A stretch of DNA of 51,944 nucleotides from Promethearchaeota archaeon (GTDB lineage Archaea > Asgardarchaeota > Lokiarchaeia > Sigyniarchaeales > SOKP01): NCBI GenBank assembly GCA_019894975.1, contig JAGXNO010000026.1, positions 1 through 51,944 of the forward strand. Reading direction: 5' to 3'. Numbering within the stretch: the first letter of the stretch is position 1; each line of letters starts with the position of its first letter. The notes below the pieces were generated by a model. That model was not told the origin of the DNA. It saw only the letters and a list, made by a program, of their open reading frames with translations, and ran no database searches. The position numbers and the translations under genes were made by a program. Positions 14,406 through 41,393 of this stretch are shown here, piece after piece.

Positions 14406-15091
14406 AAAAAATCAGTTATTTTTTTATTATGTAAATCTTCAGCTATTATTTTTCTTATTGTAGCCCACGATTTCCTAGCGAAAGGGGGTGATTTTTTTTT
14501 TTCCTTTATCCATATTCGAAGGAAATCGATTGTTCTTCTATCTGAAGGATATCCTGATCCAAAATCCCCAAATTTTTCCTTTAATTCCTCGATTAATGTA
14601 TCTCGTTTATCTTTAGCCACGATTGAGGCTGCAGATACAATTGGAAAGAGATCATCAGCTTTATGTTTTGAAATGAGTTCATCTGGTTTATAGTCTAACC
14701 GTTTTAAAATAGAATCCCTAAACCTATTTTCAATTACATCAACCGCATCAACATAAATAACACTTGGTTTTAATTCTCTGATGATTTCTGCCATTTTTAA
14801 TTCTTCAAGTTCATTTAAAGTGATTTTATTCTCTTCTCTTTGGTCAATTTCTTCGGGTGGGACTACAATAATTTTAAAAGATTCACATCTTTCTACAATT
14901 AACTTTGCCAATTTACTCCTTTTATTAGCATTTAGTTTCTTAGAATCTTTTACTCCGATCTCAGTTAAATAAGGGAGATTTGCTTCTTTAAAACAGACAC
15001 CACAAAGAACCAGAGGACCAATTACGGGACCTTTTAGGATATAATTCGAAATGAATTAAATTCTCCCAGCCTCGTCTATACCACAAATCAC
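14402..15091 (-). CDS. rnhB: ribonuclease HII, split by a 30-nt intron (join of 15091-15063 and 15032-14402; 219 aa)
   Basis: GTG at 15091 gives MICGIDEAGR, then a 30-nt insert with in-frame TAA, then GPVIGPLVLCGV...GVKDSKKL continuing into the track ORF (YVDA, KADD, VSAASIVAK, GSGYPSD, C-terminal PIP box KKITDFF). Confidence 0.93.
15033..15062 (-). other. putative BHB-type mRNA intron (30 nt) in rnhB
   Basis: mRNA: C-UGGG-AG^A-AUUUAAUUC(AUUUC)GAAUUAUAU-CCUA-AA^A-G. UGGG/CCUA 4-bp helix, two 3-nt bulges, intron hairpin; cutting after bulge nt 2 restores GGG AGA GGT (G-R-G). Confidence 0.85.
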
Positions 15092-15104
15092 TTCTGATTA
15101 CCTT

Positions 15105-16106
15105 TTAAGAATCTTGGATGAGTTCGATAAATTCTTCCTCATCATCAACTTGTTCTAAATTCTTTATTTTAATAATATGAATATCCTTTCCTTTTATAGT
15201 TCCTGGAATTCTTACACTATTATCAACAATGTACAATGCTGTTTTATGAAATAAATCATTAAACATCTTTAAACAATTGAAATTTACCTCATTTACTTTC
15301 TTCTGCTCATCAGAGAGAGCTGAAAAAAGAGGATAAAAACCATCACTCCCAACTTTATCGATAGAAGAAAATAAAGATAATTTGAAAGGTACTGAGCCTT
15401 TCTTGTACCAGTAAGAAGATAATCCAATATCATTTACTATAGTTTGAACATGGGATTCGAATTCACTGAGTTCCTTTTCTTGGAGATAATCATTATCTCC
15501 CATCTCATGCTTTACATTCCACTTGAAGATATTAATTTTTTTGAAAATTTCACTATCTTCTAAGATATTTAAAATTTTCCTAGCTATTTCTTCAGAGGGA
15601 CGCATGCTTTCATTTTCATATGAGCAAACGGTTCTCTTAGTTATTCCTAACTTCTCTGATAATTCTTTTCTTGTTATTAAACGTTGTTCTCTTATCTCTT
15701 TCATTAGAACACCATCTAAAAACACAACACCACCACCTCTCTTAGCTAATATATAGGGATATATATTATTTGCAAGAATTTTTTCAAGCGTAGTTAATGT
15801 TATAAAGGGTAACCCATTTCTAACATAAATTGTGTTATCTTCTAAGTTCTGATACCTATTTTTTATACCTATCAACAAGGGTTTAGATTTTAAAATTGTT
15901 GATAAAGACTTAATATCACGTACTAGATCCTGATTTAAATTATCAATATTAGGAAAGACTTTTACACTAAAAACTAAATCATCTCTTTTTACTAAAAGAT
16001 CAAAGCAAAATTTACTTTTTTTTGATCCAAAATTTCCTAAAGAGAAAGTTTCGAAATTAGCCTTTTTCAGCAGACCATCAATTCTTTCAATAACAGTACT
16101 CGACAT
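15105..16106 (-). CDS. archaeal Cro/C1 HTH transcriptional regulator (COG1395-like)
   Basis: CFDLLVKR, VKVFPNIDNL, LEDNTIYVRNG, RGGGVVFLDG, HTH ITRKELSEKLGITKRTVCSYENE. Confidence 0.85.
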   Translation of the reverse strand: MSSTVIERIDGLLKKANFETFSLGNFGSKKSKFCFDLLVKRDDLVFSVKVFPNIDNLNQDLVRDIKSLSTILKSKPLLIGIKNRYQNLEDNTIYVRNGLPFITLTTLEKILANNIYPYILAKRGGGVVFLDGVLMKEIREQRLITRKELSEKLGITKRTVCSYENESMRPSEEIARKILNILEDSEIFKKINIFKWNVKHEMGDNDYLQEKELSEFESHVQTIVNDIGLSSYWYKKGSVPFKLSLFSSIDKVGSDGFYPLFSALSDEQKKVNEVNFNCLKMFNDLFHKTALYIVDNSVRIPGTIKGKDIHIIKIKNLEQVDDEEEFIELIQDS

Positions 16107-16228
16107 TAAACCTAATTACTTTAATGATATTTTATAATTAAACCTTATTTTGTGATAGTAATATTTTAAGACTTAATTAATTTATTTCTGTTTTTAATAA
16201 TATTCGATAGGGTTTATTGTACTTTTCA

Positions 16229-16831
16229 TTAATCTTGAGTAAGTTTAAGAAAGTCGGCATCAGTTATTATGCCAACAAAGTCATGTTGTTCATTTTTTAC
16301 CAACACTGCGGAGTATCTTATAAGTAAATTTGAGATATCCTTCACGTTCCAGTTCTCATCAACTTCAGGGAACGGTAGTTCTTTTATAAGAGATACATCC
16401 CCACCTAGAATCTCAGGATTATCTGTTATGTGTTTTTGAATTTTTTTTGAGGTAATGCTTCCAAAATTATGTTTATTTTCTATTATCGGAAGTTGGGAGA
16501 TATTTTCGTCATGCATAATTTCTACAGCTTCTCTTATGGTTGAATTCGGTTTAATAAACTTGATATCACGGCTCATGATGTCTTTAGCATATCTTTTTGA
16601 CTTTTTTCGTTTATTTTTTTCTTTCTCTAAATATTCGTATATCATTTTAAATTTAGTATAGGGAGGATCAACCAATCCACTTTCAATTCTTGAGATTGTA
16701 GATTGGGTTATATTCAATTCGTCAGCGAGTTCTTTTTGACTTATATTTAATTTCTTTCTTAAACGCCTTATTTCACTTAAAGAAGGTAAATTTATCATAT
16801 TTGGTTGGTATAATTTATGCGTGTTGTGCAT
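16229..16831 (-). CDS. HTH-XRE + CBS domain transcriptional regulator
   Basis: ISQKELADELNITQSTISRIESGLVDPPY followed by a CBS pair (ISQLPII, VGIITDADFL). Confidence 0.9.
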   Translation of the reverse strand: MHNTHKLYQPNMINLPSLSEIRRLRKKLNISQKELADELNITQSTISRIESGLVDPPYTKFKMIYEYLEKEKNKRKKSKRYAKDIMSRDIKFIKPNSTIREAVEIMHDENISQLPIIENKHNFGSITSKKIQKHITDNPEILGGDVSLIKELPFPEVDENWNVKDISNLLIRYSAVLVKNEQHDFVGIITDADFLKLTQD

Positions 16832-16996
16832 AATGAAAGTAATAAATATTTATAAATATTTTTCATACCCTAAAATTAACCATACAAAATAAATGAAACG
16901 ACTATATTTTTCATTTAATAAGGAATTTAACTGATAAATAATTTAAAAACATACTTAAAAGAACAATTTATATCATTAAGAAGTTGGTTATATGAA

Positions 16997-18241
16997 ATGT
17001 TAAAAATTACTCGAGCAAACTTTTTACCTATTGAAAAGAGTGAATTTCCTGAGATTGCGGAACGCAAAGGCCTAGGTCACCCTGATACCGTCTGTGATGC
17101 GGTCGCAGATGCTTGTTCTAGAGCCTTATGCGTTTATTATCTTGAAAATTTTGGCCGAGTTTACCACCATAATGTCGATAAGGCTGCCCTTGTTGGAGGC
17201 ACCGCAAAACCCAAATTTGGTGGGGGTCTAATTATTCAACCGCAATATTTTTTAATCGTAGGACGTGCAATAAATCAGATACTTACAGAATGTACTGATG
17301 GACCTAATAAACTTGAATATGTCCCAATCCCAACCATCTGTATCGATACACAACGCGAAGTGTTATCTAAGATTTTTAGAAATCTTAATTTAAATCGTGA
17401 CATTCAGTTTGATTACGCTGTAAGGCCTGGATCCATTGATTTAACAGGCGTATTTGATGAATCTCACCACACAGATGATGTTCCATTGGCAAATGATACT
17501 AGTTTTGGAGTAGGGTATGCTCCATATTCAGATGTTGAGAGAGTGACATTAGAGGCTGAGAACCTCATTAATTCTCCCGCATTTAAAGATAAGTGTAAGG
17601 GCTCTGGGGAGGATATAAAAGTGATGACACAGAGAATCGGAAATAACGTGGGAATTACAGTAGCAGCTGCGATGGTGAGTAAATATATTAATGATGCTGA
17701 CGAATATGTGAGTTATACTAATCAAATAAGAGATGCTGTATTGGATCTGGCGTCAGACATTATTCCTGAACGGGATGTGACCTGTCAAGTAAATGTTGCA
17801 GATAATATAGAGAAAGGAATTATGTACTTAACAATTACGGGCACATCTGCCGAAGCAGGAGATGATGGTGAGGTAGGACGTGGGAATAGGTCTAATGGCC
17901 TTATTACTCCTTGTAGAACAATGAGTTTGGAAGCTGTTTGTGGAAAAAATCCAATTAATCACGTAGGAAAAATCTACAATGTATTAAGTACTGAAATCGC
18001 AAGAGAGATTATTAATCGAGGGCAAGGAGATATAGTAGAAGCGCATATAAAATTACTCTCTCAAATAGGACATCCAATTACGGAGCCTTGGGTTAATTCT
18101 ATAGAACTAATCCCTGCAGAAAATGTAAATTTTGATTCTGTAAAGAAAATAGCTGCGGAAGTATCTGAAGAAAAATTATCTAAAGATGCGTTAATTGATT
18201 TGAGAAAGAGATTAATCGCAGGCGACGTTCAAGTATATTAG
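16997..18241 (+). CDS. mat: archaeal S-adenosylmethionine synthetase
   Basis: [65 protein letters not shown]. Confidence 0.97.
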
Positions 18242-18341
18242 AAAATAGGTATTGATAAACAAATTTTTATTTTTTTCTCATTTTTTATATATTAGATTTT
18301 CAAATAGGAAACTAATTATTAAATATTATAATGATTATTAT

Positions 18342-18599
18342 ATGGGTTTAGATAAATGGCTTAACTCTGAGGAAGTAGAAAAACAGAAGAAGAAAAAGCC
18401 CACTGAGGTTGGAAAAAAGAAGAATGAAGGAAAGCAAGCTCCTGAGTCGAAAACCAACATTGTGAAATTGATGAAATACACTCTTAATTGCCCTAATTCA
18501 AAATGCAAATACCAGAAAACAGTTATGAAAAAAATTCTTACAGATTTGGATAAGATCTGTCCTAGATGTGATAAAGAAATGAAAGTTAAAAGTATCTAA
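18342..18599 (+). CDS. small Lys-rich zinc-ribbon protein
   Basis: Likely start ATG 18342 (MGLDKWL); CPNSKC...CPRC; the track's upstream extension is low-complexity T-rich sequence. Confidence 0.65.
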   Translation: MGLDKWLNSEEVEKQKKKKPTEVGKKKNEGKQAPESKTNIVKLMKYTLNCPNSKCKYQKTVMKKILTDLDKICPRCDKEMKVKSI

Positions 18600-18615
18600 T
18601 GATATCCAAATTAAC

Positions 18616-18876
18616 TTATCGTTGTTTTTTTACGTATTCAACGGGTTTAAGAGTTTTTAAGTCAAAAACCGATTCACAATTAGGGCAAGTGTTCGGTTTC
18701 TTACTGTATTTGAGAATAAAATAGATTATAAAGCCCAGACCTATGGTCATGATAACCAGGAACATTAAAATTTCATGATATTGATGGTCGAAAGTTTTTC
18801 GACGCAGTTCGACGGTTTGCTCGCATGTTGGACAAAACACTTTATGTCCCATTTGTCGGTTCTCCTCAATTAACAT
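18616..18876 (-). CDS. LITAF-like zinc ribbon membrane protein
   Basis: CPTC - hydrophobic segment - CPNC architecture. Confidence 0.6.
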   Translation of the reverse strand: MLIEENRQMGHKVFCPTCEQTVELRRKTFDHQYHEILMFLVIMTIGLGFIIYFILKYSKKPNTCPNCESVFDLKTLKPVEYVKKQR

Positions 18877-18924
18877 ACAAAAACAAATTGAATATAATGT
18901 TAAAATAAATACAGTGAAACTTAA

Positions 18925-19686
18925 TTATATTTGGTTTGAAATCGAATTATTTCTAATCTCATTTAAATTTTTTGCTGATCTGCCAATGTAAATGGAGTGC
19001 GCCTTAAGATGTTGATTAATTTTAGTGTAGCTTCCCATCCCTAGAATAGCTCCCTTTTCCACTATTGTACCAGGAGAAATCACGCTAAATGCCCCTATTG
19101 TGCTTCCTTCTTCTAAAATCACTCTTTTGATGATTAAAAATTCTCCTACAATCATAGAACTCATGATGATTGATCCTTCACCAAGAATAACATTATCCTT
19201 AATTATTACGAAATCTGAATCGATATAGCTGTCTAGAACACCACTATTGTATGAAACCTTTACTCCTAGTGTTTTCAAGGCTAGTAATTTTGCCCAAGGT
19301 AAAGGGAAGTAATTAAATATTTTTAAAATCAAACTTTTTAAATTTTTTCTTAGAATGTAGAAAATATAATCTTTATTTTTTAAAGATCTCAAAAAAAATC
19401 CTTCTTTTGGCTTATGAATTAAATTTATAATTATCAAAAACAGTTTTGAAAATAGGAGGAGAAAAAGAATGAAAATTCCATAATAGAGAACAATAGAAAC
19501 GGGCAAAAAACACAATATTACTATAGTTGGGATAAATGAGGAGAAAATATTGAAAAAAAGCGAAAAAATTAGACTTGTTGGGAAAATTGAAAGCCAAATC
19601 AAGAGGATATAAAGCCATAAAAGACTGTAAGGGGTTGTACTGTTGTTTGTCACAATTATATCGTTAATCGGTATGATTATCACCAA
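18925..19686 (-). CDS. membrane protein with left-handed beta-helix (hexapeptide) acyltransferase-like domain
   Basis: Two TM segments, PKEG, then IKDNVILGEGS / LEEGSTIGAFSVISPGT repeats; true start uncertain. Confidence 0.75.
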   Translation of the reverse strand: MVIIIPINDIIVTNNSTTPYSLLWLYILLIWLSIFPTSLIFSLFFNIFSSFIPTIVILCFLPVSIVLYYGIFILFLLLFSKLFLIIINLIHKPKEGFFLRSLKNKDYIFYILRKNLKSLILKIFNYFPLPWAKLLALKTLGVKVSYNSGVLDSYIDSDFVIIKDNVILGEGSIIMSSMIVGEFLIIKRVILEEGSTIGAFSVISPGTIVEKGAILGMGSYTKINQHLKAHSIYIGRSAKNLNEIRNNSISNQI

Positions 19687-21217: not shown

Positions 21218-21354
21218 CGTTCAATTTATCTTAAATTGAATTAGAATTGTAGATTTAATATTTTTCACAAGAATTAAACTTTTGTAATTGTTTTGTTCAT
21301 GGCTTATAATCTCTGCCAAAAACTTGCCAAGCGAATAAAATAATTATACTTAGA

Positions 21355-21540
21355 TTATTTGAACCCTCGAAATGGTTTTTTCTCTGGTTCTTTTCTTTTT
21401 TTCTCTCCTGTTGTCAGTAAGTTAAAAGTATTTTCTACTCCTAATTCGTTTAATTTTTGTCTTTCCTCCTCTAAAGAATATTCTTCCTGATTTAAGGAAT
21501 TTTCTTCTTCTTCATTTTCTTCCTCACTCATTATACTCAC
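21355..21540 (-). CDS. small acidic-then-basic hypothetical protein
   Basis: 61-aa ORF, Glu-rich N-terminus, Lys/Arg-rich C-terminus. Confidence 0.55.
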   Translation of the reverse strand: MSIMSEEENEEEENSLNQEEYSLEEERQKLNELGVENTFNLLTTGEKKRKEPEKKPFRGFK

Positions 21541-21729
21541 TTACAATTTATCAAACTCTATCTAAATAGTATACTTCATATTAATAAAATTTAGCAAAAA
21601 TAAGGAGAAAAGAAATTTCCCAAATTTGTTGCTCTTATCATCATTACAGAAAAGAAGATACTAAATAATATTTTAAATCTGCAATTTAATAATTAATTAA
21701 AAATAATACTTTTTAAAAAAAAGATAATT

Positions 21730-22719: not shown

Positions 22720-22897
22720 TGGGGCAAATATGATCATAATCTCAAATAGATCTTTTATTATTTTTACTTTTTATTTTATGAAAGTTAATTTATTTTATAA
22801 AAGTAAAAATTATGAAGGATGATAATTTTAATAAATTATACTTTTCTATTCATAAACAATAATTTTGAAAAAATGAATGAAGTTTTGGTGAAATAAA

Positions 22898-23872: not shown

Positions 23873-23895
23873 TATCTCTTTTTTGGTATTCTAGC

Positions 23896-25052: not shown

Positions 25053-25559
25053 TTACTCACTAAACAGATTCAATAAGTTTTTCAGTTTTAAATCTGCTAT
25101 AATATTTTTCATGATAGCTTTTCCTAATGGTGCCACCTTAGTTATTCCTAGCTCATCAAAAGTTCTTATATAATCATTTTCGATGAGAAATTTAATATCA
25201 GTGTCCCATACATTAGAAAAAATATCTTTTAAATCTTCAGTTTTTATATTTTCATCAACTTCTTTGCTTAAGGCTACTATTAAAGCTAAAGTACCGTATT
25301 GAGAGGGGGTCACATTATCATCTTTCCCCTCAGAAGTCAAAATATAAAATGTTTGCTCAAGAAATTTAGTTTTAATCAGTTCAAATCCAATATTTATTAA
25401 TTTCACATAGATTTCACTCATTACTTCTTCATAGTTGTAATCCTTGCTCAAATTCTTGAGATCTTCTTCTCTTATCATCTTTTGAGGATTGTTTAAGATG
25501 ATTTTGGTTATATTTTTTATAGTTTCTTCAAATTCTTCTACTGCCATTATAAGTATCAT
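25053..25559 (-). CDS. tandem winged-helix protein, possible kite (ScpB/Nse1/Nse3-like)
   Basis: LINIGFELI...FYILT, VTPSQYGTLALIVAL, LIENDYI, APLG pattern; overlaps the stop of the SMC-like gene. Confidence 0.45.
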   Translation of the reverse strand: MILIMAVEEFEETIKNITKIILNNPQKMIREEDLKNLSKDYNYEEVMSEIYVKLINIGFELIKTKFLEQTFYILTSEGKDDNVTPSQYGTLALIVALSKEVDENIKTEDLKDIFSNVWDTDIKFLIENDYIRTFDELGITKVAPLGKAIMKNIIADLKLKNLLNLFSE

Positions 25560-27166
25560 CCATTTTCTTGTATTGTAACTGTTTTTACATTTTTTATTTC
25601 TTTTTTCATTTCTAGATTTGAAAAGATAAAAATGAGATTGAATTTAGATAGGTATTCTTCAGTATCAAATAGAGGTAGAATTTTTCTGATAGTTCTGAAT
25701 ATTGATCCTGCTTTATTATAAACACTAGGAATGAACAGATTCGAAAATACAATATTATGATTTTTAACCTGTAGCCCAATTGAAATATTACATACGATTA
25801 TGAAAAATATCTTTTCGGGAGTAGTTAATTCATCAAATATAATTTTTTCCTTCATATTCCGAGTGAATCTAATTTGTATAAAAAAGTTTATATTATCCTC
25901 ACTCAAAAGAATTCTAAATTGTGATTTTAGATTAATCTGGGATAAGAATCTGTTAATAAAGGTTTCAAGATCATCCATAAGGGCTTCTAATTTTTGAAAG
26001 GAATCAAAAATTTGAATAACTTCTTTTTCATTTTTCCTAATCTTAATTTTATTTTGATTTTTTTTCAAGTTGTTATTAAAAACCTTTAACTTCTCTATTA
26101 TTTTTGATAAATCTTCTGGATCCTGAAGATCTGATTTACTATTTGGAACGGAGATTGTTTCTATCTCATTATTAATTTTTTTGATATCGTTTTTGACTTC
26201 TTCGATCGATCTAACTGATTTTAAATTAAATTCATTATAATCATGAAGAGAATTATTTTTATTTAGAAATTTTGTCTTAAGTTCAAGCTCTAACTCTCTT
26301 ATTTTTTTATTATCAGTACTAATTATGTCTTTAAGTTTTTCATAATCATTTTTATAGGCTTCATAAAGCGGATTGAAGTCTTTGAATTTCAGATTAGTTT
26401 CCTCGACTTTCTGATTGAGATTATTAATATCACGTTGGGTTTCTTTTGCTTTCTTTTGGAAAGCCTTTATTTTTTGTGCATTCGTTAAACTCTCGTCAAT
26501 TTCTGGAATTATTTGCTGTTCTTCCCTTTCCTTGTTAGAATTTCCAGACATTTCACGCGTTATTCTATTAATTTGACTAAAGAATTCTTTTTTCTTCTTA
26601 GTTAAATTTTGAATTTGTTGCTTGTAATTGTTGATTGCATTATTAAGCTGGTCAATTTGATTTTTTCGTTGAAAATAATCTTCTTCAAGGTATTTTAATC
26701 TTTTCTTATTATCACTCATAGACTTATTTAACTTTTCTAATAAATCAGATATCGCAGAGATATCACTGTATTTTTCATATTCTTCAGTAATTTCCAATTC
26801 TTTTAGAAATTTTTCCTTTTCTTTTAGAAGAAAATTCAGTCTTATTTTTGCTAATAATTTATCTATAATTTCACTGTACTGAGAGATTATTTTAATGTTT
26901 TTTTCCATTGAACCATGAAACTCGTTAACAAGGTTTATCAAATTTAGTGATTTTTCTAGATCACTGAAATCTTCTAATTGGTTCAAGTAAATATCGGTAA
27001 ATTTGGCGATGGGAATTAAGTTTAAATCTTCAAGAATTTCTGAGATTTTTTCACTTTTATCATCTTTAATTAAATTTCTTTTAAATTTTCCATTTATAAT
27101 AGTGAATCTATCTTGAATTAAAATTTCTCTAGAACCGATGGAAATAGTAAATTTCTTCGTCTGAAT
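25556..27166 (-). CDS. long coiled-coil protein resembling a degenerate SMC/Rad50; probable ATT start
   Basis: Frame open 60 codons upstream of track start 26986 (IQTKKFTISIG...DRFTIINGKFK); central coiled coil; C-terminal FDELTTPEKIFF resembles a degenerate LSGGEK signature. Confidence 0.55.
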   Translation of the reverse strand: MQTKKFTISIGSREILIQDRFTIINGKFKRNLIKDDKSEKISEILEDLNLIPIAKFTDIYLNQLEDFSDLEKSLNLINLVNEFHGSMEKNIKIISQYSEIIDKLLAKIRLNFLLKEKEKFLKELEITEEYEKYSDISAISDLLEKLNKSMSDNKKRLKYLEEDYFQRKNQIDQLNNAINNYKQQIQNLTKKKKEFFSQINRITREMSGNSNKEREEQQIIPEIDESLTNAQKIKAFQKKAKETQRDINNLNQKVEETNLKFKDFNPLYEAYKNDYEKLKDIISTDNKKIRELELELKTKFLNKNNSLHDYNEFNLKSVRSIEEVKNDIKKINNEIETISVPNSKSDLQDPEDLSKIIEKLKVFNNNLKKNQNKIKIRKNEKEVIQIFDSFQKLEALMDDLETFINRFLSQINLKSQFRILLSEDNINFFIQIRFTRNMKEKIIFDELTTPEKIFFIIVCNISIGLQVKNHNIVFSNLFIPSVYNKAGSIFRTIRKILPLFDTEEYLSKFNLIFIFSNLEMKKEIKNVKTVTIQENG

Positions 27167-27189
27167 CTGTAAACACTTCTTTTTATAGT

Positions 27190-28251
27190 TTAAGAGTTTT
27201 CAAAATGATCCTTGTATTTCTTATATTCCTTTTGTTTTTTCACTTTTCTTTCCCTGATTAAATCAAGAGGATCTAGTTCATCCTCTTTCTGGATCAAATA
27301 TTTATCTTCAAAACTTTTATCTAATTTTGATTTAAATTTCTCAATTTTTTCGGTTATTTCGTCACTTATTTCTATTTTTTTGCCTTCTTTATCAGTAGTT
27401 TTTATATCTCTTAACTTTTCTCTAGACTTTTTACGAGTCTTTCTCTCAAAGGCTTTATCTGATAATTTCATGTAGTCATTGTAACCTTCTCTTTGTTCCT
27501 CCTGCGTCTTTTTTAATTTTTCTAATTCTTCTTGTTCCTTTGCCTTAGCTATAAATTGTCTTTTTGTTTTTAATTCTTTCTGTGTTAATTTACTCTCAAA
27601 GTCTTGAATAAATTCTGAAAAAGTAATATAGGGATCTTCATAAAACGCTTTTTCAAAGTCTTTTATTAGTGTATGGTCAGCGTCTTTTGGGATTTTACTT
27701 AATTCTAATTTGAGTTTATCTTGAATTACATTTTCATAATATAATTCAAATTTTTTTATAATACCTAAGAATAAAGAGTTTTGCTTTAAAGAATCTAGAA
27801 GTTCTAACCATCGAAAGACATCTATTGAAGGGATATATGAAATCTTATGTATGGTTTTATTAATTTTTCTTTGATCAATTAAATGTAATCCAATTTCTCT
27901 TAATCGTGATTGGTTTAATTCTAATCGTTTTAATTTTAATTGTTTTTTTTCCTTATATTTTTTAATAAGATTCTCTTGAAGGATTAAAAAACTAATGATA
28001 TTATCCATTGATATTTTTTCTAATGCATTACTTGTGGTCATCATTAAATCTGTTATTTCTTCAATTTGAGAAAGAAGAATTTCACTTGTAAAATTAGGGA
28101 TAACTGATTGTTTATAGTTTTTAAAGTTATCAGAATCTTCATTTAGCTGATGCATTTTTGCTTGAAGCACATCTAAAGAAGATGTTAATTCCTTAATTTT
28201 CTCGAGATTGAATAATTGATTTCCTGTCATATTTGAATAAAATAACTTCAT
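27190..28251 (-). CDS. coiled-coil, Lys/Glu-rich hypothetical protein
   Basis: 353-aa ORF with heptad-like charged composition. Confidence 0.75.
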   Translation of the reverse strand: MKLFYSNMTGNQLFNLEKIKELTSSLDVLQAKMHQLNEDSDNFKNYKQSVIPNFTSEILLSQIEEITDLMMTTSNALEKISMDNIISFLILQENLIKKYKEKKQLKLKRLELNQSRLREIGLHLIDQRKINKTIHKISYIPSIDVFRWLELLDSLKQNSLFLGIIKKFELYYENVIQDKLKLELSKIPKDADHTLIKDFEKAFYEDPYITFSEFIQDFESKLTQKELKTKRQFIAKAKEQEELEKLKKTQEEQREGYNDYMKLSDKAFERKTRKKSREKLRDIKTTDKEGKKIEISDEITEKIEKFKSKLDKSFEDKYLIQKEDELDPLDLIRERKVKKQKEYKKYKDHFENS

Positions 28252-28267
28252 TTACACTACATTTTTG

Positions 28268-29377
28268 TTAAATTTCTGGTGGACGGGGTAAGTTTTTTCT
28301 TCCTTTTTCGCTAGCTTTAGTCCTATTAGCAATAATCTTGGAACTACTTAAAACATCTTGTCGTTCGACATGGATAGCGGTTCCACCGACTAAACGCATT
28401 GAACTATAGAAAATTTCATATGTAAGCCGTTCTGAACTAATAGCTTTTAATAGGGCTACTTTAGTCCCCCTTTCAATATCAGATCCAGAATATCCATAAG
28501 TCAATTTCAAAAGCCCTTCGTTTTTGCTCCTTTTAGTAATCTCATCCCATAAGACACTATCATCAAACTCGGATATATTTCGTCCTAATTTATTTTGTAG
28601 TTCTTTAGCACTCACTTGGAATTCTTCATATTCATCGTTTAAATTCGAAAAAATAGTATCATCAACGCCTATTTTTGCTTTTTTTACCTTATTAACAAAA
28701 GCTTCTATGATTAATTTACGCAAGTGATAATTAGGGAAATTGAATTCAAAGTGAAATGTGAAACGACGCCATATCGCAGAATCGAGTTGATGTTGATGAT
28801 TAGTCGCTCCAAAAATCGCCAAAGGAACACCTTCATAGTTAACTCTGTCAATAACCTGCAAAAAAGAAATAACAGCTCTTTTAATTTCTCCAACTTCATG
28901 GATGTTAGACCTTTCAGAACCAATAGCATCAATTTCATCAAAGAAAAGAACAAAGGCACCTCGCTCTTTTGCAATTTCTGCTGATAGTTCGACAACCCCT
29001 CTAATATTTTTAATTGTGTCTCCTAACAGGGGTGATACAAGTCTGTCAGATTCCACAATACATATCGGGATATCATATTTTTTAGCAAAACCTCTTGTTA
29101 AAGAGGTCTTGCCCGTACCGGGAGGGCCATATAGAAGTACCGTTAAATTAGGTGTAAGTTTTGTATCTCTTAATTGTTCCATAAATTCTTCATATTTTAA
29201 CAGGGCTTTAAAAAAATCATCTAGAATTTCTTTTTTCGTTTCGTTACCTAAAATGTCTTCTACCTCTTCTTTTATGTCTGCTGAAAGATAGACAGCACCA
29301 TATTTACCAAGACGTTCTTTAATTACATCATCTGTATAGGTTATTTTTACTTCATTCCCATCATTTTTTTTACTAAT
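28268..29377 (-). CDS. AAA+ ATPase (classic AAA clade); probable ATT start
   Basis: GPPGTGKT, FFDEID, ATNHQHQLDSAIWRRF, GYSGSDIE; frame open 65 codons upstream of ATG 29182, including EDILGNETKKEI, the usual pre-Walker A segment. Confidence 0.88.
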   Translation of the reverse strand: MSKKNDGNEVKITYTDDVIKERLGKYGAVYLSADIKEEVEDILGNETKKEILDDFFKALLKYEEFMEQLRDTKLTPNLTVLLYGPPGTGKTSLTRGFAKKYDIPICIVESDRLVSPLLGDTIKNIRGVVELSAEIAKERGAFVLFFDEIDAIGSERSNIHEVGEIKRAVISFLQVIDRVNYEGVPLAIFGATNHQHQLDSAIWRRFTFHFEFNFPNYHLRKLIIEAFVNKVKKAKIGVDDTIFSNLNDEYEEFQVSAKELQNKLGRNISEFDDSVLWDEITKRSKNEGLLKLTYGYSGSDIERGTKVALLKAISSERLTYEIFYSSMRLVGGTAIHVERQDVLSSSKIIANRTKASEKGRKNLPRPPEI

Positions 29378-29406
29378 TTTCTCTCAACTCCATTAATATA
29401 TATAAA

Positions 29407-30705
29407 TTACTTTCTATTGTCGAATTTTGTACAAAATTCAGCAATTTCATTAATAAATTCTTTAAGGTTATCAATTTGAGATCCAATAAAGTTGAAAATT
29501 TCTTTTCGATATTGAATGGAATCTCTAATTTTCATTTTATCTAATCCCAAATAATTAGGAAAGCATATAAGTTTCATTAAATAGGGGAGGATTTTCTCAT
29601 TAGTCTGTAAGTCTTTAAATATTGCATAAAAAATATTTTCATCAGATAATTTCCATTTCAAAATACTCATATAAATCAAAAAAGAAAAATTCATAGAAAC
29701 CCAATTTACTAATTCTTTTGATAGAAAACCTCTTCTCTGTGCCGCAAATGCTAAATAATAAGTAATTAGAGTTTCATTACTAAACTGAGGCAAATATCTT
29801 ATGGTTCCATCAGTTTGTGTATTTTCACGAAGAAAATTGTTATCAATTAGAATATCAACAAAATCTTCTTGCGGTGCCAGAAATATTCCATCTATTAACC
29901 GTAAGCCTATCCTTTCGGCTACTTTTTCTATTGCTTCTTCTTCAGCATTCGCAATTGAATCAATATATGGCAAGAATACTTCATTTTTTAAAATCATTGG
30001 AATTTCATAATTTTGTTTTTCAGGAAATTCCCCAAAATTAGGATCTAAGTTATAAAGGGAGGTTATATTGTTGATAATTTGATATATCTTAGGAGAAATA
30101 ACAGGAATTTCAAAAAAATCTGGACTTTCTAATTTTTCTCTATAATATGTATGAGATTGTAATAGATGACGCTGGCATTCATAGAGATTAAGAGAATTAT
30201 CTAATAATTTCTCATATATAATTTTGAGATTTGTCCCTTTTGGAAATATTTTCTCCTCAATGAATTTAACTAGTTGATAAAGATAAGTATTTTCTATATT
30301 GAGCTCATCAGGATTAGTTATATGACGTAATACGTTTAAGGCATCTACAGATTCATGTAAAAATTCTATAATATAATCTTTAATATCAATAATTGGAATT
30401 TCTTCTCTATATTTTATTATAAAATCTTTAATTATATCATATACATTTGACCTATACATAGCAGAGAATTCTGAAAGTGCCCTAACTTTACGAATATTTC
30501 TTTTTTCTTCCTCCTGGCGGATTTTATCAAGAATTTCTGTATCAAGTAGCAAATCAGGATCCAAATCAATAATTATCCTTCTTGTTTCTCTTAAAATTGG
30601 GCGCATATGACTTATAAAAGTTAAATACCTAGGAAGAATATCAGTCCATTTTTCTCTTCTCCTTCCGGATTTTACCATTCTTGTTGATTTCTTTTTGTAA
30701 CTCAT
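29407..30705 (-). CDS. hypothetical protein
   Basis: 432-aa ORF in a tightly packed minus-strand gene run. Confidence 0.8.
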   Translation of the reverse strand: MSYKKKSTRMVKSGRRREKWTDILPRYLTFISHMRPILRETRRIIIDLDPDLLLDTEILDKIRQEEEKRNIRKVRALSEFSAMYRSNVYDIIKDFIIKYREEIPIIDIKDYIIEFLHESVDALNVLRHITNPDELNIENTYLYQLVKFIEEKIFPKGTNLKIIYEKLLDNSLNLYECQRHLLQSHTYYREKLESPDFFEIPVISPKIYQIINNITSLYNLDPNFGEFPEKQNYEIPMILKNEVFLPYIDSIANAEEEAIEKVAERIGLRLIDGIFLAPQEDFVDILIDNNFLRENTQTDGTIRYLPQFSNETLITYYLAFAAQRRGFLSKELVNWVSMNFSFLIYMSILKWKLSDENIFYAIFKDLQTNEKILPYLMKLICFPNYLGLDKMKIRDSIQYRKEIFNFIGSQIDNLKEFINEIAEFCTKFDNRK

Positions 30706-30732
30706 TTTTTAATTATTCAACTCAATCTTATC

Positions 30733-31872
30733 TTATTCCTCATCATATCCTACTAAAATTTCAGTGAAGATGTTAGAAATTTCAACAAATATAGGTATTT
30801 CTACTCTGCATAAATTCCCCAGGATCCATTTATTAACATCTTTAAGGAGAAATTTTATCTGATTATGAATTTTTTTATTGATTTCGGAATCTATTATTTT
30901 TGAGAACCACAAACCCCCTCCTACTCTATATGCTACAATCTTAATGAGTGGTCCAAATAAAGGCTCTAAAACCTGTCTTAACATCCATGATTTTGGAATA
31001 ACACTCATACTCTCGGCTTTAAATGTAGGATCATTTAAAATTGGATTTGTTTCATCAACAGATAATTTGGGCATAAAACTTAATAATAATATTAACGCAA
31101 AAATTGCTGAGATGCCATTAATTGTATATGATCCCCCGATTTTTTCGAGATCATCTCTATAAATAGCAATATTAGCAAGAAACATACACATAAACACGTT
31201 TCTATCAAAATCTTCAGAAATGTAAGCATATCCTAATTCTTCATCAATAACAAGATATTTTTCTTCAAGTATTTTTATTATATCATCGGGAAAAGTATAA
31301 AATGTATATACTTTTTCCTCACTCCTTCTCACATCTTTTTCAATTTTAAGCTCTTTTGAAATGAGTCCAAACATATTCACTAATTCATCAAGTTGCTTCT
31401 GTATATAATGTCGAGGTTTATTCGGGTTACCAAACATTGCGAAAAATTGATGATCAACTATGTGAAAATCATTTCTTTTGCCAAAAGCCTCTACCATTCT
31501 ATCTATTATCGGCCCCTGAGATTCCGAGGCAATAATTTTAGCTTTTGAGGTTACAAATCCATTTAATAATTCATTTATTATGAAATCTTGCTCATGAGTT
31601 CTCGATTTTAAAATAAGTCCAAAGGCTTCAGAAAAACTTTTGGAGTTTGGGAAAAAAGCATTTTGGATTTTTTCATTTATAGATTTTATGAAAATATCTC
31701 CATCATTTTTTGGGAAATGAAGTTTCATATTATTAAGCCTTTGAATAAGTGCTTCTTTAGCACCTGGGATATTTTCAACATCTCTTTTTTGTAATTCTTC
31801 TATTGCGTTTTCGAGTCCGTTTTCAAAATCGCTCATTAACATTTTCCAAGTTGTATCTTGAACTTCTCCCAT
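30733..31872 (-). CDS. hypothetical protein
   Basis: 379-aa ORF in the same gene run. Confidence 0.8.
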   Translation of the reverse strand: MGEVQDTTWKMLMSDFENGLENAIEELQKRDVENIPGAKEALIQRLNNMKLHFPKNDGDIFIKSINEKIQNAFFPNSKSFSEAFGLILKSRTHEQDFIINELLNGFVTSKAKIIASESQGPIIDRMVEAFGKRNDFHIVDHQFFAMFGNPNKPRHYIQKQLDELVNMFGLISKELKIEKDVRRSEEKVYTFYTFPDDIIKILEEKYLVIDEELGYAYISEDFDRNVFMCMFLANIAIYRDDLEKIGGSYTINGISAIFALILLLSFMPKLSVDETNPILNDPTFKAESMSVIPKSWMLRQVLEPLFGPLIKIVAYRVGGGLWFSKIIDSEINKKIHNQIKFLLKDVNKWILGNLCRVEIPIFVEISNIFTEILVGYDEE

Positions 31873-31901
31873 GTTTTTTTCTCAGCTTTTAATAGAATTT
31901 A

Positions 31902-32867
31902 TTAATTAATATCCCAATTTAATTCTGTTGATATTTTTTTTAATGCGTTAATTAAAGGTTTAATTAGCTTTCTATCATAAATATTTGGGGAAGATACACC
32001 TTTTTGGGCTTTCCAGCCCATTTGAGTACCTTCACCCATTTCTCTTTGTCCGTATCTTAAAATGTTACTAAGATCTCGTACCCACCAGTAAAATCTTAAC
32101 CATTTCCTATTTGGATTATCTTTTGAATAGATAACTACTATTGCTTTCCATTCACCCATCAACCATTTTACTGTAACTCCACTTACGGGCAAGTAAAAGT
32201 TTATAGGAAAATTTCCATGAAATCGTAAATCGAGGTCAGTCGATGAAATATTAAAGATTGGTTGATTATATCCTTCTAATATTACTATTTCCCCACAATG
32301 TTGACATTCATAATGGGATTTCATCTTATCCATCTTTTTGCCACATTTTGGACATGTCCTGTTTTCAATAATTCTATATTTGATGATTTCTAAATATTTT
32401 TCTTTTTCTAAATCTTCTTCTGACTTCGGTTCTCTTATTCCATAACTGCCACTCCAATTCCATATATCGTCAAAAGTTTCATCAAAAGTTTCTAAAGAAA
32501 CAATGATATTATTAAGGACTGCTTTATCATAAATTTTAATCATACCTGCGTGCCGTAAATTTTTCCACCAGGATAGTCTTACGTACTTTTCCTCTTTTAA
32601 ATAACCACTATGACAAATTAAAGCAGCAAATAATCGCTCTTCTGTTTTGCTAAGGATTATCCCAGACTCAGCAACTTCATAAGTTTTATTAAGTGACATA
32701 TTAGTATGAAACCACTCTCCATCAACCATGTTTCCAATTAGAAAGTCTTCTTTTTTCGCTTTCTCGTCATCTACACTTTTGGCTTTAATGATTTTCTTAC
32801 AACTTGTGCATTGGAAAATCCCCTCAATCAGCATCTCCATCTCGATATCACATGCAGGACATTTCAT
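31902..32867 (-). CDS. zinc-ribbon protein with an internally duplicated domain
   Basis: CPAC..CTSC and CPKC..CQHC ribbons, each followed by a repeat (YVRLSWWK..IYDKAVL / WLRFYWWV..IYDRKLI). Confidence 0.75.
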   Translation of the reverse strand: MKCPACDIEMEMLIEGIFQCTSCKKIIKAKSVDDEKAKKEDFLIGNMVDGEWFHTNMSLNKTYEVAESGIILSKTEERLFAALICHSGYLKEEKYVRLSWWKNLRHAGMIKIYDKAVLNNIIVSLETFDETFDDIWNWSGSYGIREPKSEEDLEKEKYLEIIKYRIIENRTCPKCGKKMDKMKSHYECQHCGEIVILEGYNQPIFNISSTDLDLRFHGNFPINFYLPVSGVTVKWLMGEWKAIVVIYSKDNPNRKWLRFYWWVRDLSNILRYGQREMGEGTQMGWKAQKGVSSPNIYDRKLIKPLINALKKISTELNWDIN

Positions 32868-36819: not shown

Positions 36820-36877
36820 TATAATCCAGAATTATTTAAACAAAAAAAGGGGAATTTTGATTTGCTCTTGTTTGAGT

Positions 36878-37153
36878 TCACCTTTTCAAACGCTTTCTAC
36901 CAAAGTATATCATTTCACAGCAAAAGATCCCTGCTAATATGATTATGCCATATAAGAGAATATCATTTATAGTAATTTGATTATTACTAGAATTAACATC
37001 AGTAATTTCTTCTGCTTCCTCATACTGAAAGATGTAAAGTGTTTTCCATGGAGCACTATTTCCGACTGTATCTTTAGTGCTGACTCTTAAATAATAAGTG
37101 CCGTTAGAAACTGTTGGGGGATCGAAAACGGTGTAAGCTGTAAACGAAATTAA
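36878..37153 (-). pseudogene. C-terminal remnant of a cell-surface protein (Ig-like strand + TM anchor)
   Basis: Start-less frame: ...NGTYYLRVSTKDTVGNS...ILLYGIIILAGIFCCEMIYFGRKRLKR*; in-frame TAG immediately upstream. Confidence 0.6.
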
Positions 37154-37316
37154 CTACCATAGGAGAGTATATTGCATTTAAAAGATTTAAAACTTAGCAC
37201 ATCACATTAATCAAAGATTTGTCAACTTCTAATTTCCAAAATATTAAATAGAGAAAAAAATAAAAATAAATGTACAATTAAGTAAAATTGAAATTCAATA
37301 GATCAAGTTACCTCTG

Positions 37317-39197
37317 ATGATGAAAAGAACTCATAAAGAATTTTTACATGTTCTAATATTTTGTATACTTCTCTTTTCCATCAATCCCTATAAAAATTCA
37401 ATTTTTGTTAATATTGAGGGTAACCTAAGGAATAATGGAAGCTATGAACCATCTGGTTTAATTGCGTTATGGTCCGGACCATTAAATACCATCCCAGATG
37501 GGTGGAAGTTATGTGATGGCAGCGATGGGACGCTAAACATAAGTAATCGGTTTGTCTGCGGTACTGATAATATGGAAGAACCTGGAATCACAGGTGGTAG
37601 TAGTTCACATAACCACAATTATACAACAGTTCCTTACCACGATCATGGCGAAACAGATACCGCAACTTGTAGACATTCTCACAATTGGGATGGACCAGGA
37701 GCCAGACTGCAGGTTATGGAAGGTAACACTGTCGGTCTTTTTAATAATGGTGTCACGGGGTCCGATCCTGCCAATCATTCACATAATGTGGACTATACAG
37801 GTCAAGCTATCTCTTATACGTCTGAAGAGGAAAATATTTTACCCCCTTATTACAAGTTGGTATTTATCGAGAAAGAAAAAAAGGATGCCGTTATACCTAT
37901 TGGGTTGATCACAATGTGGGCAGGAACTATTGAAAATATTCCTGAGGGTTGGGCATTTTGTAATGGATTGAACGGAACACCCGATCTTCGGGAGAAATTC
38001 ATTCGGGGAGTCCTTCCAGGAGAAGATCCTGGATCTTTAGGTGGAAATTTGTCCCATATTCATACATATACAGATATTCCAAATCATACACACTCTCTTT
38101 CTATCGGAGGATATAATCACGTTCATCCAGGCGCATTCGCACATATTCCTCGGTATCTTCATTATGTTGGTCCAGGATCTGTAAGAATTTCTGGCCTTTC
38201 AAGTGCCTCTTACACGGATTATACTGATACACCACATACACATACCATAAACGAAATTGGAATGGAGAATTGCACAACACAACATACCGAACACTTACCT
38301 CCCTATTTCAAGATGGCATTCATAATGAATAAGGAAGTAACAGATGCATTACCAGTGGGATCTATTTCTATGTGGGGAGATTCAATAATGGATATACCTT
38401 CAGGTTGGAACCAATGCAATGGAACGCATAACACTCCTAACATGCTTAACAGATTCCCGAGAGGAATTGCATCTGGAGAACAACCCGGAATTATTGGAGG
38501 ATCGACCACTCATCGTCATATCTATACAGAAGTTCCCTTACACACGCACATTGTTTTCGAGGATCCGATGCGTCATCGTCACTCCATGGTTGGAGTTGCC
38601 ACTCCATGGGTGGAATTCCCTTCAATGCCTTCAATTAGTGGCATTGGTTTTCCAGTCCTTATTCCTAGTCAAGCGAGTTATAGCTCTCAAAGTAACGCCC
38701 CTCATAATCATACTGTAAATCCTACAGGTTCCATGTCTTGCTATACTTCAAATGAAAGCAATCTTCCCCCATTCATTAAACTTGTTTTTATACAAAAAAA
38801 CTTACTCATCTCCAACCCTTCTCCTGCTGATGGGGCTTTTGGTGTTGGAAATAATCCTACATTAAGCGTAGATGCTTTAAAGTTAGAAGGAGATGACTTA
38901 ATCATTACTTTTTATAATGCTTCCGACAATAGTATAATTGAAGCAGATGTTATCTTGGGTGGAAGTGGTACCGCATCAATAACATGGTCCGGACTCTCTT
39001 ATGGTACGAGGCATTCGTGGTATGTAATAGTGGATGATGGTTTGAAAAGTATCCAATTTGAGACATGGTCATTTACGACAAAAAGCCCTGAAAGCTTTCC
39101 ATTCCCATTAATAATTACGATTTCTATGGTAAGCGCTGGAGCGATTGTAGGAGCTACAACGATGATCTGGTTAAAGCGGAGGAGAAAAAGAGCATAG
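37317..39197 (+). CDS. membrane-anchored surface protein with three phage tail-collar/His-rich fibre-like repeats
   Basis: N-terminal hydrophobic signal; three repeats of P.G.I..W.G...IP.GW..C.G..T....RF..G...H.H...LPP...L.FI; C-terminal TM + KRRRKRA. Confidence 0.8.
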   Translation: MMKRTHKEFLHVLIFCILLFSINPYKNSIFVNIEGNLRNNGSYEPSGLIALWSGPLNTIPDGWKLCDGSDGTLNISNRFVCGTDNMEEPGITGGSSSHNHNYTTVPYHDHGETDTATCRHSHNWDGPGARLQVMEGNTVGLFNNGVTGSDPANHSHNVDYTGQAISYTSEEENILPPYYKLVFIEKEKKDAVIPIGLITMWAGTIENIPEGWAFCNGLNGTPDLREKFIRGVLPGEDPGSLGGNLSHIHTYTDIPNHTHSLSIGGYNHVHPGAFAHIPRYLHYVGPGSVRISGLSSASYTDYTDTPHTHTINEIGMENCTTQHTEHLPPYFKMAFIMNKEVTDALPVGSISMWGDSIMDIPSGWNQCNGTHNTPNMLNRFPRGIASGEQPGIIGGSTTHRHIYTEVPLHTHIVFEDPMRHRHSMVGVATPWVEFPSMPSISGIGFPVLIPSQASYSSQSNAPHNHTVNPTGSMSCYTSNESNLPPFIKLVFIQKNLLISNPSPADGAFGVGNNPTLSVDALKLEGDDLIITFYNASDNSIIEADVILGGSGTASITWSGLSYGTRHSWYVIVDDGLKSIQFETWSFTTKSPESFPFPLIITISMVSAGAIVGATTMIWLKRRRKRA

Positions 39198-39471
39198 ATA
39201 TATCTATTAAAAAAGATTTTAAGACGAAATCTGAATGTTAAAGATTAAAACATATCGAGTTGTGTTAACAAATTTATAAACTGTATAGACAGATATACAA
39301 AATTATCACTCCATAGGAGTATTTTAGATCTCATTTATTTGTAACCTCTTGAGTAATTGAGCATGGTATCTTAATGAGGGAAACTTTTTACTCCTCTTTT
39401 TCTTAAATGAACAAATAAAAAACTCATATCCATTATGGAAAGACTAGATTTTGAAATTCAAATACACAAAT

Positions 39472-40572
39472 TTACTCTTCACTGGTAGTTAGTATTAATC
39501 TTTCATAATCTAAATTCAATAATTTTATTTCTTTCTTTGTTAATTCTGAAATTTTATCGTTAATAGTCTTTACCTCTTTTCTAAGATCAACAAGTGTTTG
39601 TTGAATAGTATCTAAAATATCATCTTCATTATAGGTAACCTTCTCAATGAATTCAAGATATTTGAATTTTTTATCCTTACCTGAATAATAACTCTTTAAT
39701 TCTAAGATTTTTTTTTCAATCTGGTTCAATTGGTATCTAGTTTTTAATAGAAAGTTTAATTTGGAGAACCAATTAATAAAAATTGATTCCTCTCTATTTA
39801 TATTGTCGAAATTGAACTTATCAGATAACCCAATGTTTTCATCTTTTATATAGCTTATAACCTCTTTATCTTCTTCAAATGCTACATTTATTTTCTTTAA
39901 AGCTGGTTTTGTATTCAAAATTGGGTCAAAGATCTTTATGTATTCATTGATATCATCCTTTATTTCCTTAAATCTTTGATAAAAACCTTCTATAGTTATC
40001 TCGATTTTAATAACTTGATAGACATTCCCAAATTGATCCAATATATAATATAAATCGTCTGCTAACGTATAATCATGTTCGCCAATTTCATAGATTAATG
40101 AGTGTACAACATTACTCTTTTCACACCTTACACCCTTTATTCTCGTTAACGCTAAATTAAAATTTCTTCTTGTGAGAGATTTAAATTTCTTGTTTATTAT
40201 CAAAAACAAGGTGTCATCTGGAACAGAGATAGTATCTTGTTCAATCGTTATCGTTTCTTCTCCTATCTTTATTATGAAGTCATCCTCTTTCTGTTCAAAC
40301 TCTCTCATACTACGAATATTCTTAATTAATCCTAAATCGATATAAATTTCAATAAACTCTTCATCCCAGAGTTTAACTATATTGCTTTTGTAAATTTCAT
40401 CTAATATTAAAATACGGCTGTAGGATTCAATTAGATTCTCCTCTGCTAAATCCTTAAGTAAATCATTCCTAATAACATACAGGAATAGTAAGATATATCT
40501 TATATCAACATCATTCATGATGTTATCTATTAATTTAGCATCATCTTCTATTGTCAAGGTTTTATGTTCCAT
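39472..40572 (-). CDS. hypothetical protein with C-terminal coiled coil
   Basis: Track ORF 39472..40647; the downstream ATG at 40572 (MEHKTL) looks a more plausible start. Confidence 0.75.
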   Translation of the reverse strand: MEHKTLTIEDDAKLIDNIMNDVDIRYILLFLYVIRNDLLKDLAEENLIESYSRILILDEIYKSNIVKLWDEEFIEIYIDLGLIKNIRSMREFEQKEDDFIIKIGEETITIEQDTISVPDDTLFLIINKKFKSLTRRNFNLALTRIKGVRCEKSNVVHSLIYEIGEHDYTLADDLYYILDQFGNVYQVIKIEITIEGFYQRFKEIKDDINEYIKIFDPILNTKPALKKINVAFEEDKEVISYIKDENIGLSDKFNFDNINREESIFINWFSKLNFLLKTRYQLNQIEKKILELKSYYSGKDKKFKYLEFIEKVTYNEDDILDTIQQTLVDLRKEVKTINDKISELTKKEIKLLNLDYERLILTTSEE

Positions 40573-40783
40573 ACCTAAAATCCACTTACTATTTTTTAAA
40601 CTATGATAACATTTCAGTGAAAAAGAGTACTTGAAGTAATTAACCATTCCTAAAAAATTTTTCTATATTCATCGAAATAATTTAAAAGAAAAGCAAAAAT
40701 TTTTAGTTCTTGTTTCCATTTAATAACATAGAAATTTAGCTTTCATTATTATAAATAATTTCAATTTATTGGTGTTAACTAAT

Positions 40784-41393
40784 ATGGGTCGTCGTAAAAG
40801 GAAACAAGTCTCACCTAAAAGAGTTAAAAGAGTACCTAAAATTTTCACCTGCCCTGAATGATAAAATTAATTCCTAATTTTTCAAGGATTGCGGTGAAAA
40901 GAGTGTTAAGGTTACTGATATTAAGAAGAAAGGTGCTTTTGCTACTGTGAAATGTGGAAATTGTGATTTGACTAAGGTAGTGCTAGTAAATTCTATTTCA
41001 GAACCAGTTGATGCTTTTGGAGACTTTATAGATATTTTTTATGCAGATCAGGAGCTCCAACGGTTAGAGAAGCGAATTCAGAAATTAAAAGATGAAAACG
41101 AATATGGGGAACTTGCATTATCCTACTCAATTTTATCAGATCTATGTAAGGTCAAGGCTGGAATATTACTAGAAGAAGAAGATGTTAATTTGGATGAAGT
41201 GAATGAGTGGAAGATGAGAAATGAGCATTATAAAAACCTTGAAAAGGAGGCATTATTGAAGCTTGAAACTGATGAATTAGAGAGAGGTTTAAAAACTGAT
41301 GAAGAATCATTATTCGCAGAAAGAGATTCCAAGATAAAGAAAGAAAGAAAAATAGAAGATATATTTGATGATCCAGGCTTTTTAGAATTTTAG
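40784..41393 (+). CDS. elf1: transcription elongation factor Elf1 with C-terminal extension, split by a 31-nt intron (join of 40784-40858 and 40890-41393; 192 aa)
   Basis: ATG 40784 (GGTG SD): MGRRKRK...PKIFTCPE, 31-nt insert with TGA TAA, then CGEKSVKV...VKCGNC...SEPVDAFGDFID, the full Elf1 signature. Confidence 0.92.
40859..40889 (+). other. putative BHB-type mRNA intron (31 nt) in elf1
   Basis: Exon-exon stem UUUUCACC-U-GC / GC-GGUGAAAA; central helix CCUG/AAGG (3 pairs + G.A); bulges AA^U and AU^U; intron hairpin AAAAUUA(AUUCC)UAAUUUU; excision gives GAA TGC (CPEC). Confidence 0.85.

Follow-up and report, generated by a model that had tools for sequence, protein, structure and literature searches.

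Candidate tRNA-type introns of about 30 nucleotides in rnhB, elf1 and other protein-coding genes of one Promethearchaeia family

Two interrupted genes in one archaeal contig

The window analysed here is a contig of 51,944 nucleotides (nt) from a Promethearchaeota archaeon (JAGXNO010000026.1 of assembly GCA_019894975.1; contig C94 of a 3.9-Mb bin that is 95% complete and 8.6% contaminated). It carries rnhB, the gene for RNase HII, and elf1, the gene for the zinc-ribbon protein Elf1, each interrupted by a short insert. A preliminary description of this DNA had proposed that both inserts are introns of the bulge-helix-bulge (BHB) type, the motif in which the archaeal tRNA-splicing endonuclease EndA cleaves each bulge between its second and third base (PMC2738675). 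Its coordinates for the two inserts, of 30 and 31 nt with in-frame stops, proved exact, and all other codons of the two genes are intact (Table 1). The host had been described as Asgard-like, and the closest relatives of the bin are indeed Promethearchaeota (Loki) metagenome-assembled genomes (MAGs).

The rnhB insert separates DEAG-R from GPVIG, and its TAA lies two codons into the insert. Unspliced, the TAA at 15058-15056 stops translation after 11 codons; removal of 15062-15033 yields a 219-amino-acid RNase HII in which DEAGRGP is restored and no further break is found. The earliest in-frame start in exon 2 is the TTG at 14911, 40 codons downstream, and the RNase HII peptide GPVIGPLVLCGVCFK lies upstream of every in-frame start codon. 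The elf1 insert lies between CPE and CG and divides the Pfam domain Zn_ribbon_Elf1 over exon 1 and exon 2. Unspliced, TGA TAA follows directly after codon 25, and removal of 40859-40889 yields a 192-amino-acid protein with CPECG, which reads IFTCPECGEK across the junction and contains no further break.

With borders taken from the protein alignment alone, both inserts fold into the BHB geometry with a cut-site shift of 0, and the cut sites proposed to restore the frame and the consensus residues thus coincide with the alignment borders. The central helix is 4/4 paired in rnhB (UGGG/CCUA) and 3/4 paired in elf1 (CCUG/AAGG), where the exon-exon helix is 4/4. The rnhB geometry is reached by 0.015% of random coding sites, and shuffled inserts reached the observed score 4 times in 20000 for rnhB and 135 times in 20000 for elf1, counts that are not to be read as probabilities. 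The insert ends, AA...AA in rnhB and TG...AT in elf1, do not follow the spliceosomal GT...AG. A group I or group II intron has a ribozyme core of more than 100 nt, and an insertion sequence (IS) element has a transposase and terminal repeats; both candidates were rejected, since the inserts measure only 30-31 nt and form a single hairpin.

Table 1. Features of the interrupted genes in the window and of candidate introns elsewhere in the genome (positions without a contig name refer to the window)
Feature	Position	Strand	Description
rnhB exon 1	15063..15091	minus	GTG start 15091, 29 nt; holds catalytic Asp-Glu of DEAG
rnhB predicted BHB intron, 30 nt	15033..15062	minus	phase 2, in Arg codon; TAA 15058-15056 in frame
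rnhB intron inner stem	15061-15039	minus	9-bp stem (8/9 paired), 5-nt loop
rnhB BHB 5' side	15062..15068	minus	helix strand UGGG 15068-15065; 3-nt bulge AG^A; predicted cut 15063/15062
rnhB BHB 3' side	15032..15038	minus	helix strand CCUA 15038-15035; 3-nt bulge AA^A; predicted cut 15033/15032
rnhB exon 2	14402..15032	minus	remainder of RNase HII; Pfam RNase_HII falls here
elf1 exon 1	40784..40858	plus	ATG 40784, 25 codons; first zinc-ribbon Cys included
elf1 predicted BHB intron, 31 nt	40859..40889	plus	phase 0, opens TGA TAA, frame-shifting; 7-bp inner stem, 5-nt loop
elf1 BHB 5' side	40853..40859	plus	helix strand CCUG 40853-40856; bulge AA^U; predicted cut 40858/40859
elf1 BHB 3' side	40884..40890	plus	helix strand AAGG 40884-40887, one G.A mismatch; bulge AU^U; predicted cut 40889/40890
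elf1 exon 2	40890..41393	plus	second Cys onward; gene callers begin at GTG 40947, first CxxC lost
EF-1alpha candidate insert	C107:21244	minus	30 nt at GHAD-F junction, 11-bp hairpin
histone candidate insert	C110:33279	plus	32 nt, BHB, contains TAG; joined protein aligns ungapped to intact histones
gyrB candidate insert			53 nt
tRNA genes with 29-31-nt non-canonical introns	C111:16478, C111:16323, C104:7820, C149:267, C164:44816, C97:25003, C90:15793		missed or misplaced by ARAGORN

Distribution and conservation of the inserts among relatives

The rnhB insert occurs at the identical base in 81 of 154 genomes of the order: in 49 of 53 congeners, and in 80 of the 134 other members of the family (8 genera including this one), counts that come from an exact pattern and are therefore lower bounds. 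It was found in none of the 19 genomes from three other families of the order, and within the order surveyed it is confined to one Promethearchaeia family. Its usual length is 30 nt, with variants of 28, 29 and 31 nt. In a protein tree of RNase HII, the carriers fall within one well-supported clade in which insert-free sequences are interspersed, and at least two changes of state are forced. Dozens of independent genomes have the same inserts with a sequence that has diverged, which rules out an assembly artefact.

All 38 distinct rnhB junctions keep an in-frame stop, the kind and position of which vary while the sequence drifts, and in all 38 the third base of an exonic Gly codon is paired with its intron partner, as U-G, U-A, G-C or C-G. 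Across 37 aligned copies, 90% of the cells are paired and nine pairs show two-sided changes, pair counts that are slightly lowered by one misaligned row; when the partners are slid, pairing falls to 24-46%. The 4-bp central helix between the two 3-nt bulges is paired in 93% of cells (37 sequences). The exons evolve under purifying selection: among 52 close pairs, the ratio of nonsynonymous to synonymous substitution rates (dN/dS) has a median of 0.17. Constraint is strongest in exon 1 (0.08), and DEAG is invariant in 41 insert-bearing orthologues. Directly after the junction, 21 of 37 carriers have Ser in place of Pro (GS for GP) and thereby gain an A-U pair in the exon-exon helix; some insert-free relatives have Ser at that position too.

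The elf1 insert, of 31-32 nt, was found in 19 of 54 genomes of the genus with a search pattern that itself demanded the TGA. Its hairpins have diverged yet still pair, and 16 of 17 distinct copies have the relaxed 3/4 form of the central helix. The carriers are scattered, with nine changes on the tree, at least five of them forced by strong branches, and near-sister alleles differ by the exact presence or absence of the insert. This pattern could have arisen by repeated precise loss, by repeated gain or by allele exchange.

Intact copies alongside decay of the interrupted ones, which the preliminary description named as evidence that would speak against it, were not what we found. No intact second RNase HII is present in the genome, where the one locus is the interrupted rnhB, and the exons show no decay. 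An insert-free second elf1 does occur in the bin, on contig C171 (6.4 kb, positions 1-6400). It was rejected as a back-up copy, and C171 is read as contamination from a congener, because 8/8 of its genes duplicate the 30.4-43.1 kb part of the window in order, at 56-89% identity, and because it is nearer to another species (85% DNA identity).

Candidate introns elsewhere in the genome

The preliminary description expected such inserts to be widespread in the genome, and at least 17 candidate genes were found, rnhB and elf1 included. A splice-aware alignment that was blind to the BHB motif compared 2,456 open reading frames (ORFs), from 2.4 Mb of a 4.36-Mb genome of another family, with this genome. 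The 1,196 ORFs that matched revealed seven stop-bearing inserts of 29-37 nt in strongly conserved motifs, namely in rnhB, elf1, EF-1alpha, purA, dnaG, a JAB/MPN protein gene and a small zinc finger gene. All seven have a 3/4 or 4/4 helix at most 2 nt from the alignment border, and in five it lies exactly at the border. The reverse census, over 954 loci of the other-family genome, found no such insert.

A de novo BHB scan added genes for a dehydratase activase, an IorB-like subunit, a UXS-like SDR, a histone, a gamma-carbonic anhydrase and an acyl-CoA ligase, as well as cdhC, cobA and one more gene. Over the junction, 9 of the 17 candidates align to intact homologues without a gap and four with a gap nearby; cobA is supported by Pfam, and the UXS-like gene, cdhC and gyrB by recognised motifs. 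All 16 tabulated inserts contain an in-frame stop and, taken together, they occupy all three phases. They lie anywhere from codon 7 to codon 321, and the placement within the first 80 nt of the coding sequence that had been proposed holds for rnhB and elf1 but not for the genome's other inserts. Two further scan matches, in an HdrA-like gene (C103:9512) and an MvhD-like gene (C110:24862), were rejected as false positives, their in-frame TGA presumably encoding selenocysteine. Because the scan is noisy and produced these two false positives, the number of candidates is no more than a rough minimum for the genome; by extrapolation, there may be some tens of such introns per genome.

The sole EF-1alpha gene of the genome is interrupted, by an insert found in this genome alone among those searched. 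Three congeners carry EF-1alpha inserts at two other sites (32 nt in the P-loop in G001 and G004; 30 nt near the start in G018), so that three sites are used over four genomes, with a 4/4 helix in all. The EF-1alpha gene of G018 also has a lone in-frame TAA without an insert and is otherwise intact, which is probably an assembly error.

tRNA introns and splicing enzymes

Introns of 29-32 nt with a matching hairpin and bulge pattern occur at non-canonical sites of the genome's tRNAs for Thr, Asn, Gln, Lys and Arg. The cutting of tRNA introns by EndA is an established pathway. Since tRNA introns of the ~30-nt build must be cut by EndA, the EndA of this genome very probably accepts that build. 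No sequence longer than 8 nt is shared between the mRNA and tRNA introns of this genome, and recent copying between them is therefore unsupported. By eye, the elf1 insert of the congener G003 and the tRNA-Trp intron of this genome (C108:3488) have a 15-nt AU-rich stretch in common at the hairpin loop, which may hint at a common origin.

As anticipated, the genome encodes both enzymes of the tRNA-splicing pathway: two EndA paralogues (PF01974 genes, on contigs C22 and C55) and a full-length, intact RtcB (contig C90). The alpha (catalytic) subunit of EndA is closest to the Aeropyrum pernix enzyme (3p1z/3ajv; E 1e-34). It has retained the K-P-R loop, which has been linked to a broad substrate range (PMC12397907). 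A partial second RtcB at a contig end (C48:320-1171) may be contamination.

Proposed mechanism and alternatives

We consider that the rnhB and elf1 inserts are archaeal tRNA-type introns that are spliced from the mRNA, with a probability of roughly 0.9. In the folded pre-mRNA, two 3-nt bulges would flank a 4-bp helix, capped on one side by the AU-rich hairpin of the intron. A two-subunit EndA would cut after the second base of each bulge, and RtcB would ligate the exons for translation of the full-length protein; unspliced messages would yield stubs of 11 residues from rnhB and 25 residues from elf1. The inserts, their geometry and covariation, the selection on the exons, the lack of a second copy, the enzymes and the tRNA counterparts are observed, and from them we infer EndA cleavage, RtcB ligation and spliced mRNAs of these genes. 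The inserts would belong to a genome-wide class of ~30 nt that is common to mRNAs and tRNAs in one Promethearchaeia family, and introns of this class would be gained and lost precisely and often.

It is also likely, at a lower level of confidence, that this Loki-type Asgard family practises genome-wide mRNA splicing without a spliceosome. Tens of ~30-nt EndA-dependent introns would then reside in essential genes (those for EF-1alpha, RNase HII, Elf1, primase and histone), form one mobile class with the non-canonical tRNA introns that is still being gained and lost, and make gene expression dependent on tRNA-splicing capacity. The position of the introns in invariant motifs may stem from a need for fixed exon helix bases or from homing-like persistence, and both the manner in which the introns spread and a regulatory role are matters of speculation.

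Several observations weigh against these proposals. The central helix of elf1 contains a mismatch in 17/17 distinct copies, the elf1 insert folds weakly in this genome, and the exon-exon helix of rnhB is weak. The 38 rnhB sequences are kin, and the shuffle counts therefore do not amount to probabilities. In the de novo scan, shifted-geometry controls nearly match the true-geometry count except at the strictest settings, and the scan missed elf1, dnaG and two other genes. Four marine-sediment runs, probably of DNA, were compared with positions 12400-18300; no contig bridged the rnhB insert and none contained a joint that matched it, a result that neither supports nor opposes splicing. The end of one 194-nt contig from this comparison (X2, depth 4.8) falls on 15063, where the 5' cut is predicted. 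It was not used as evidence because, with ~100 contig ends on 5.9 kb, such a coincidence has a chance of roughly 3%, and because the run is probably DNA.

Programmed ribosome hopping, exemplified by T4 gene 60 and the mitochondrial byps, would leave the RNA uncut, with the ribosome departing before the stop and landing past the hairpin on a matching codon. Elements of such a system can be recognised in elf1, where the stop directly follows the last exon codon, the skipped part contains a hairpin, and in 13 of 17 distinct copies the ribosome would leave from and land on identical codons (GAA/GAA in 12, GAT/GAT in one). However, the TGA at this place was demanded by the search pattern, the G + AA of the landing codon is predicted by BHB pairing alone, and the codons mismatch in the elf1 of this genome (GAA to GAT) and in three others (AAA). 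In rnhB, AGA stands against AAA, ATA, GTA or ACA, and only one of 16 inserts genome-wide has identical codons. Hopping does not require exon-intron pairing, which nevertheless co-varies, and it leaves the same elements in tRNAs unexplained. It fails for rnhB; for elf1 it fits the copies of many relatives and keeps a small residual probability, and as an account of both genes it is very improbable.

The inserts might instead be removed by a route other than EndA and RtcB, either by a dedicated nuclease and ligase or by excision from the DNA in part of the population. Many of the helices are relaxed (3/4), and the near-sister elf1 alleles document precise removal at the DNA level over evolutionary time. 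We nonetheless regard such a route as hardly likely: every well-supported case has its borders where the rule for EndA places the cuts, the inserts have neither terminal repeats nor coding capacity, the same class occurs in tRNAs, and the EndA of this genome is of the type that is known to accept relaxed motifs and to cleave cbf5 (PMC2738675).

It is less probable still that the inserts are retained, with the genes dead or expressed as truncated proteins from downstream starts. In-frame stops, possible restarts at TTG 14911 in rnhB and GTG 40947 in elf1, and an intact elf1 in the bin would fit this explanation. A restart would, however, cost RNase HII its catalytic Asp-Glu and Elf1 its first CxxC; the part of rnhB thus lost is its most constrained, the intact elf1 sits on the contaminant contig, and the sole EF-1alpha gene is interrupted as well. 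Recoding of the stops by selenocysteine, pyrrolysine or read-through, which would place a 10-residue insertion in the protein, can be set aside: the rnhB insert is usually 30 nt and in frame, and the genome has tRNA-Sec and TGA selenoproteins, but the rnhB stop of this genome is TAA, the copies differ in which stops they have, how many and where, the lengths include non-triplets (28, 29 and 31 nt in rnhB; 31-32 nt in elf1), and ten extra residues would split the active-site motif.

Relation to known systems and significance

To our knowledge, archaeal protein genes are treated as intron-free except for cbf5. Reports of archaeal mRNA splicing in the searchable literature comprise cbf5, as the sole coding sequence, and one Haloferax intron in a 5' untranslated region (5'-UTR); searches of the same literature, in which subscription journals are mostly outside coverage, found no report of mRNA introns in Asgard archaea. 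The mechanism is known; as far as could be found, no publication describes it on this scale, in such essential targets or with this turnover.

The cbf5 pre-mRNA intron is found in Desulfurococcales and Sulfolobales (Yokobori 2009, PMC2738675; Watanabe 2002 cited there), and introns in other archaeal protein genes have been predicted only (PMC2738675). Like the candidates described here, it is a short BHB-like intron in a conserved catalytic motif, with the cut between bulge residues 2 and 3; the two-subunit EndA is of the Aeropyrum type in both cases (A. pernix splices cbf5), and both show lineage-specific loss. In contrast, cbf5 is one gene with one old site, whereas here at least 17 candidate genes, including those for EF-1alpha and histone, carry inserts of a near-uniform 29-32 nt, with several sites per gene across species and frequent gain or loss. 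Splicing of cbf5 has been proven by cDNA, while the introns proposed here are known from genomic sequence. The BHB intron in the 5'-UTR of Haloferax HVO_1309 established that EndA acts on mRNA in vivo and in vitro (PMC7714728); it shares this action on mRNA with our proposal, but is a single case and lies outside the coding sequence. A preprint of October 2026 on non-canonical tRNA introns in Asgard archaea (bioRxiv 10.64898/2026.10.13.758758) treats tRNA genes only, and the word mRNA is absent from it. It likewise describes BHB borders, repeated gains and two EndA paralogues, and the inserts described here match the tRNA introns of our own genome in size and build; its focal classes are different ones, Jordiarchaeia and Atabeyarchaeia.

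The preliminary description also drew a line to IRE1-HAC1/XBP1 splicing in eukaryotes. That comparison is an analogy that extends to a shared ligase type, and it is not evidence of descent, because the trait is confined to one family and was found in none of the 954 other-family loci. In IRE1-HAC1/XBP1 splicing, too, a short frame-breaking mRNA intron is removed without the spliceosome, and the exons are joined by a tRNA ligase (RtcB in animals). Unlike EndA, to which it is unrelated, the nuclease IRE1 cuts in two separate loops and has one regulated target.

If true, our proposal would place tens of spliced mRNAs in a lineage among the closest prokaryotic relatives of eukaryotes, and neither a spliceosome nor a nucleus would then be required for coding genes to become rich in introns and for these to be tolerated. 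The near-sister elf1 alleles and the three EF-1alpha sites would offer a living system for the study of intron gain and precise loss, and competition between splicing and coupled translation would become testable. The truncation of these genes by gene callers distorts the marker sets, completeness estimates and metabolic models of Asgard archaea (purA, cdhC, gyrB, dnaG).

Genomic surroundings

Next to elf1, a conserved proline-rich coiled-coil protein without a Pfam family over the cut-off is encoded on the minus strand at 41526-41978. Positions 29407-30705 have no Pfam match; they fall in a stretch, 25053-32867 on the minus strand, in which we recognised by eye a conserved cluster with an SMC-like coiled-coil protein and an AAA ATPase. 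Between 33139 and 39197, the window holds a 1226-amino-acid ORF and a gene for a 626-amino-acid repeat protein with a C-terminal membrane anchor. Both are absent between the matching flanking genes of contig C171, so that this segment looks like an inserted island.

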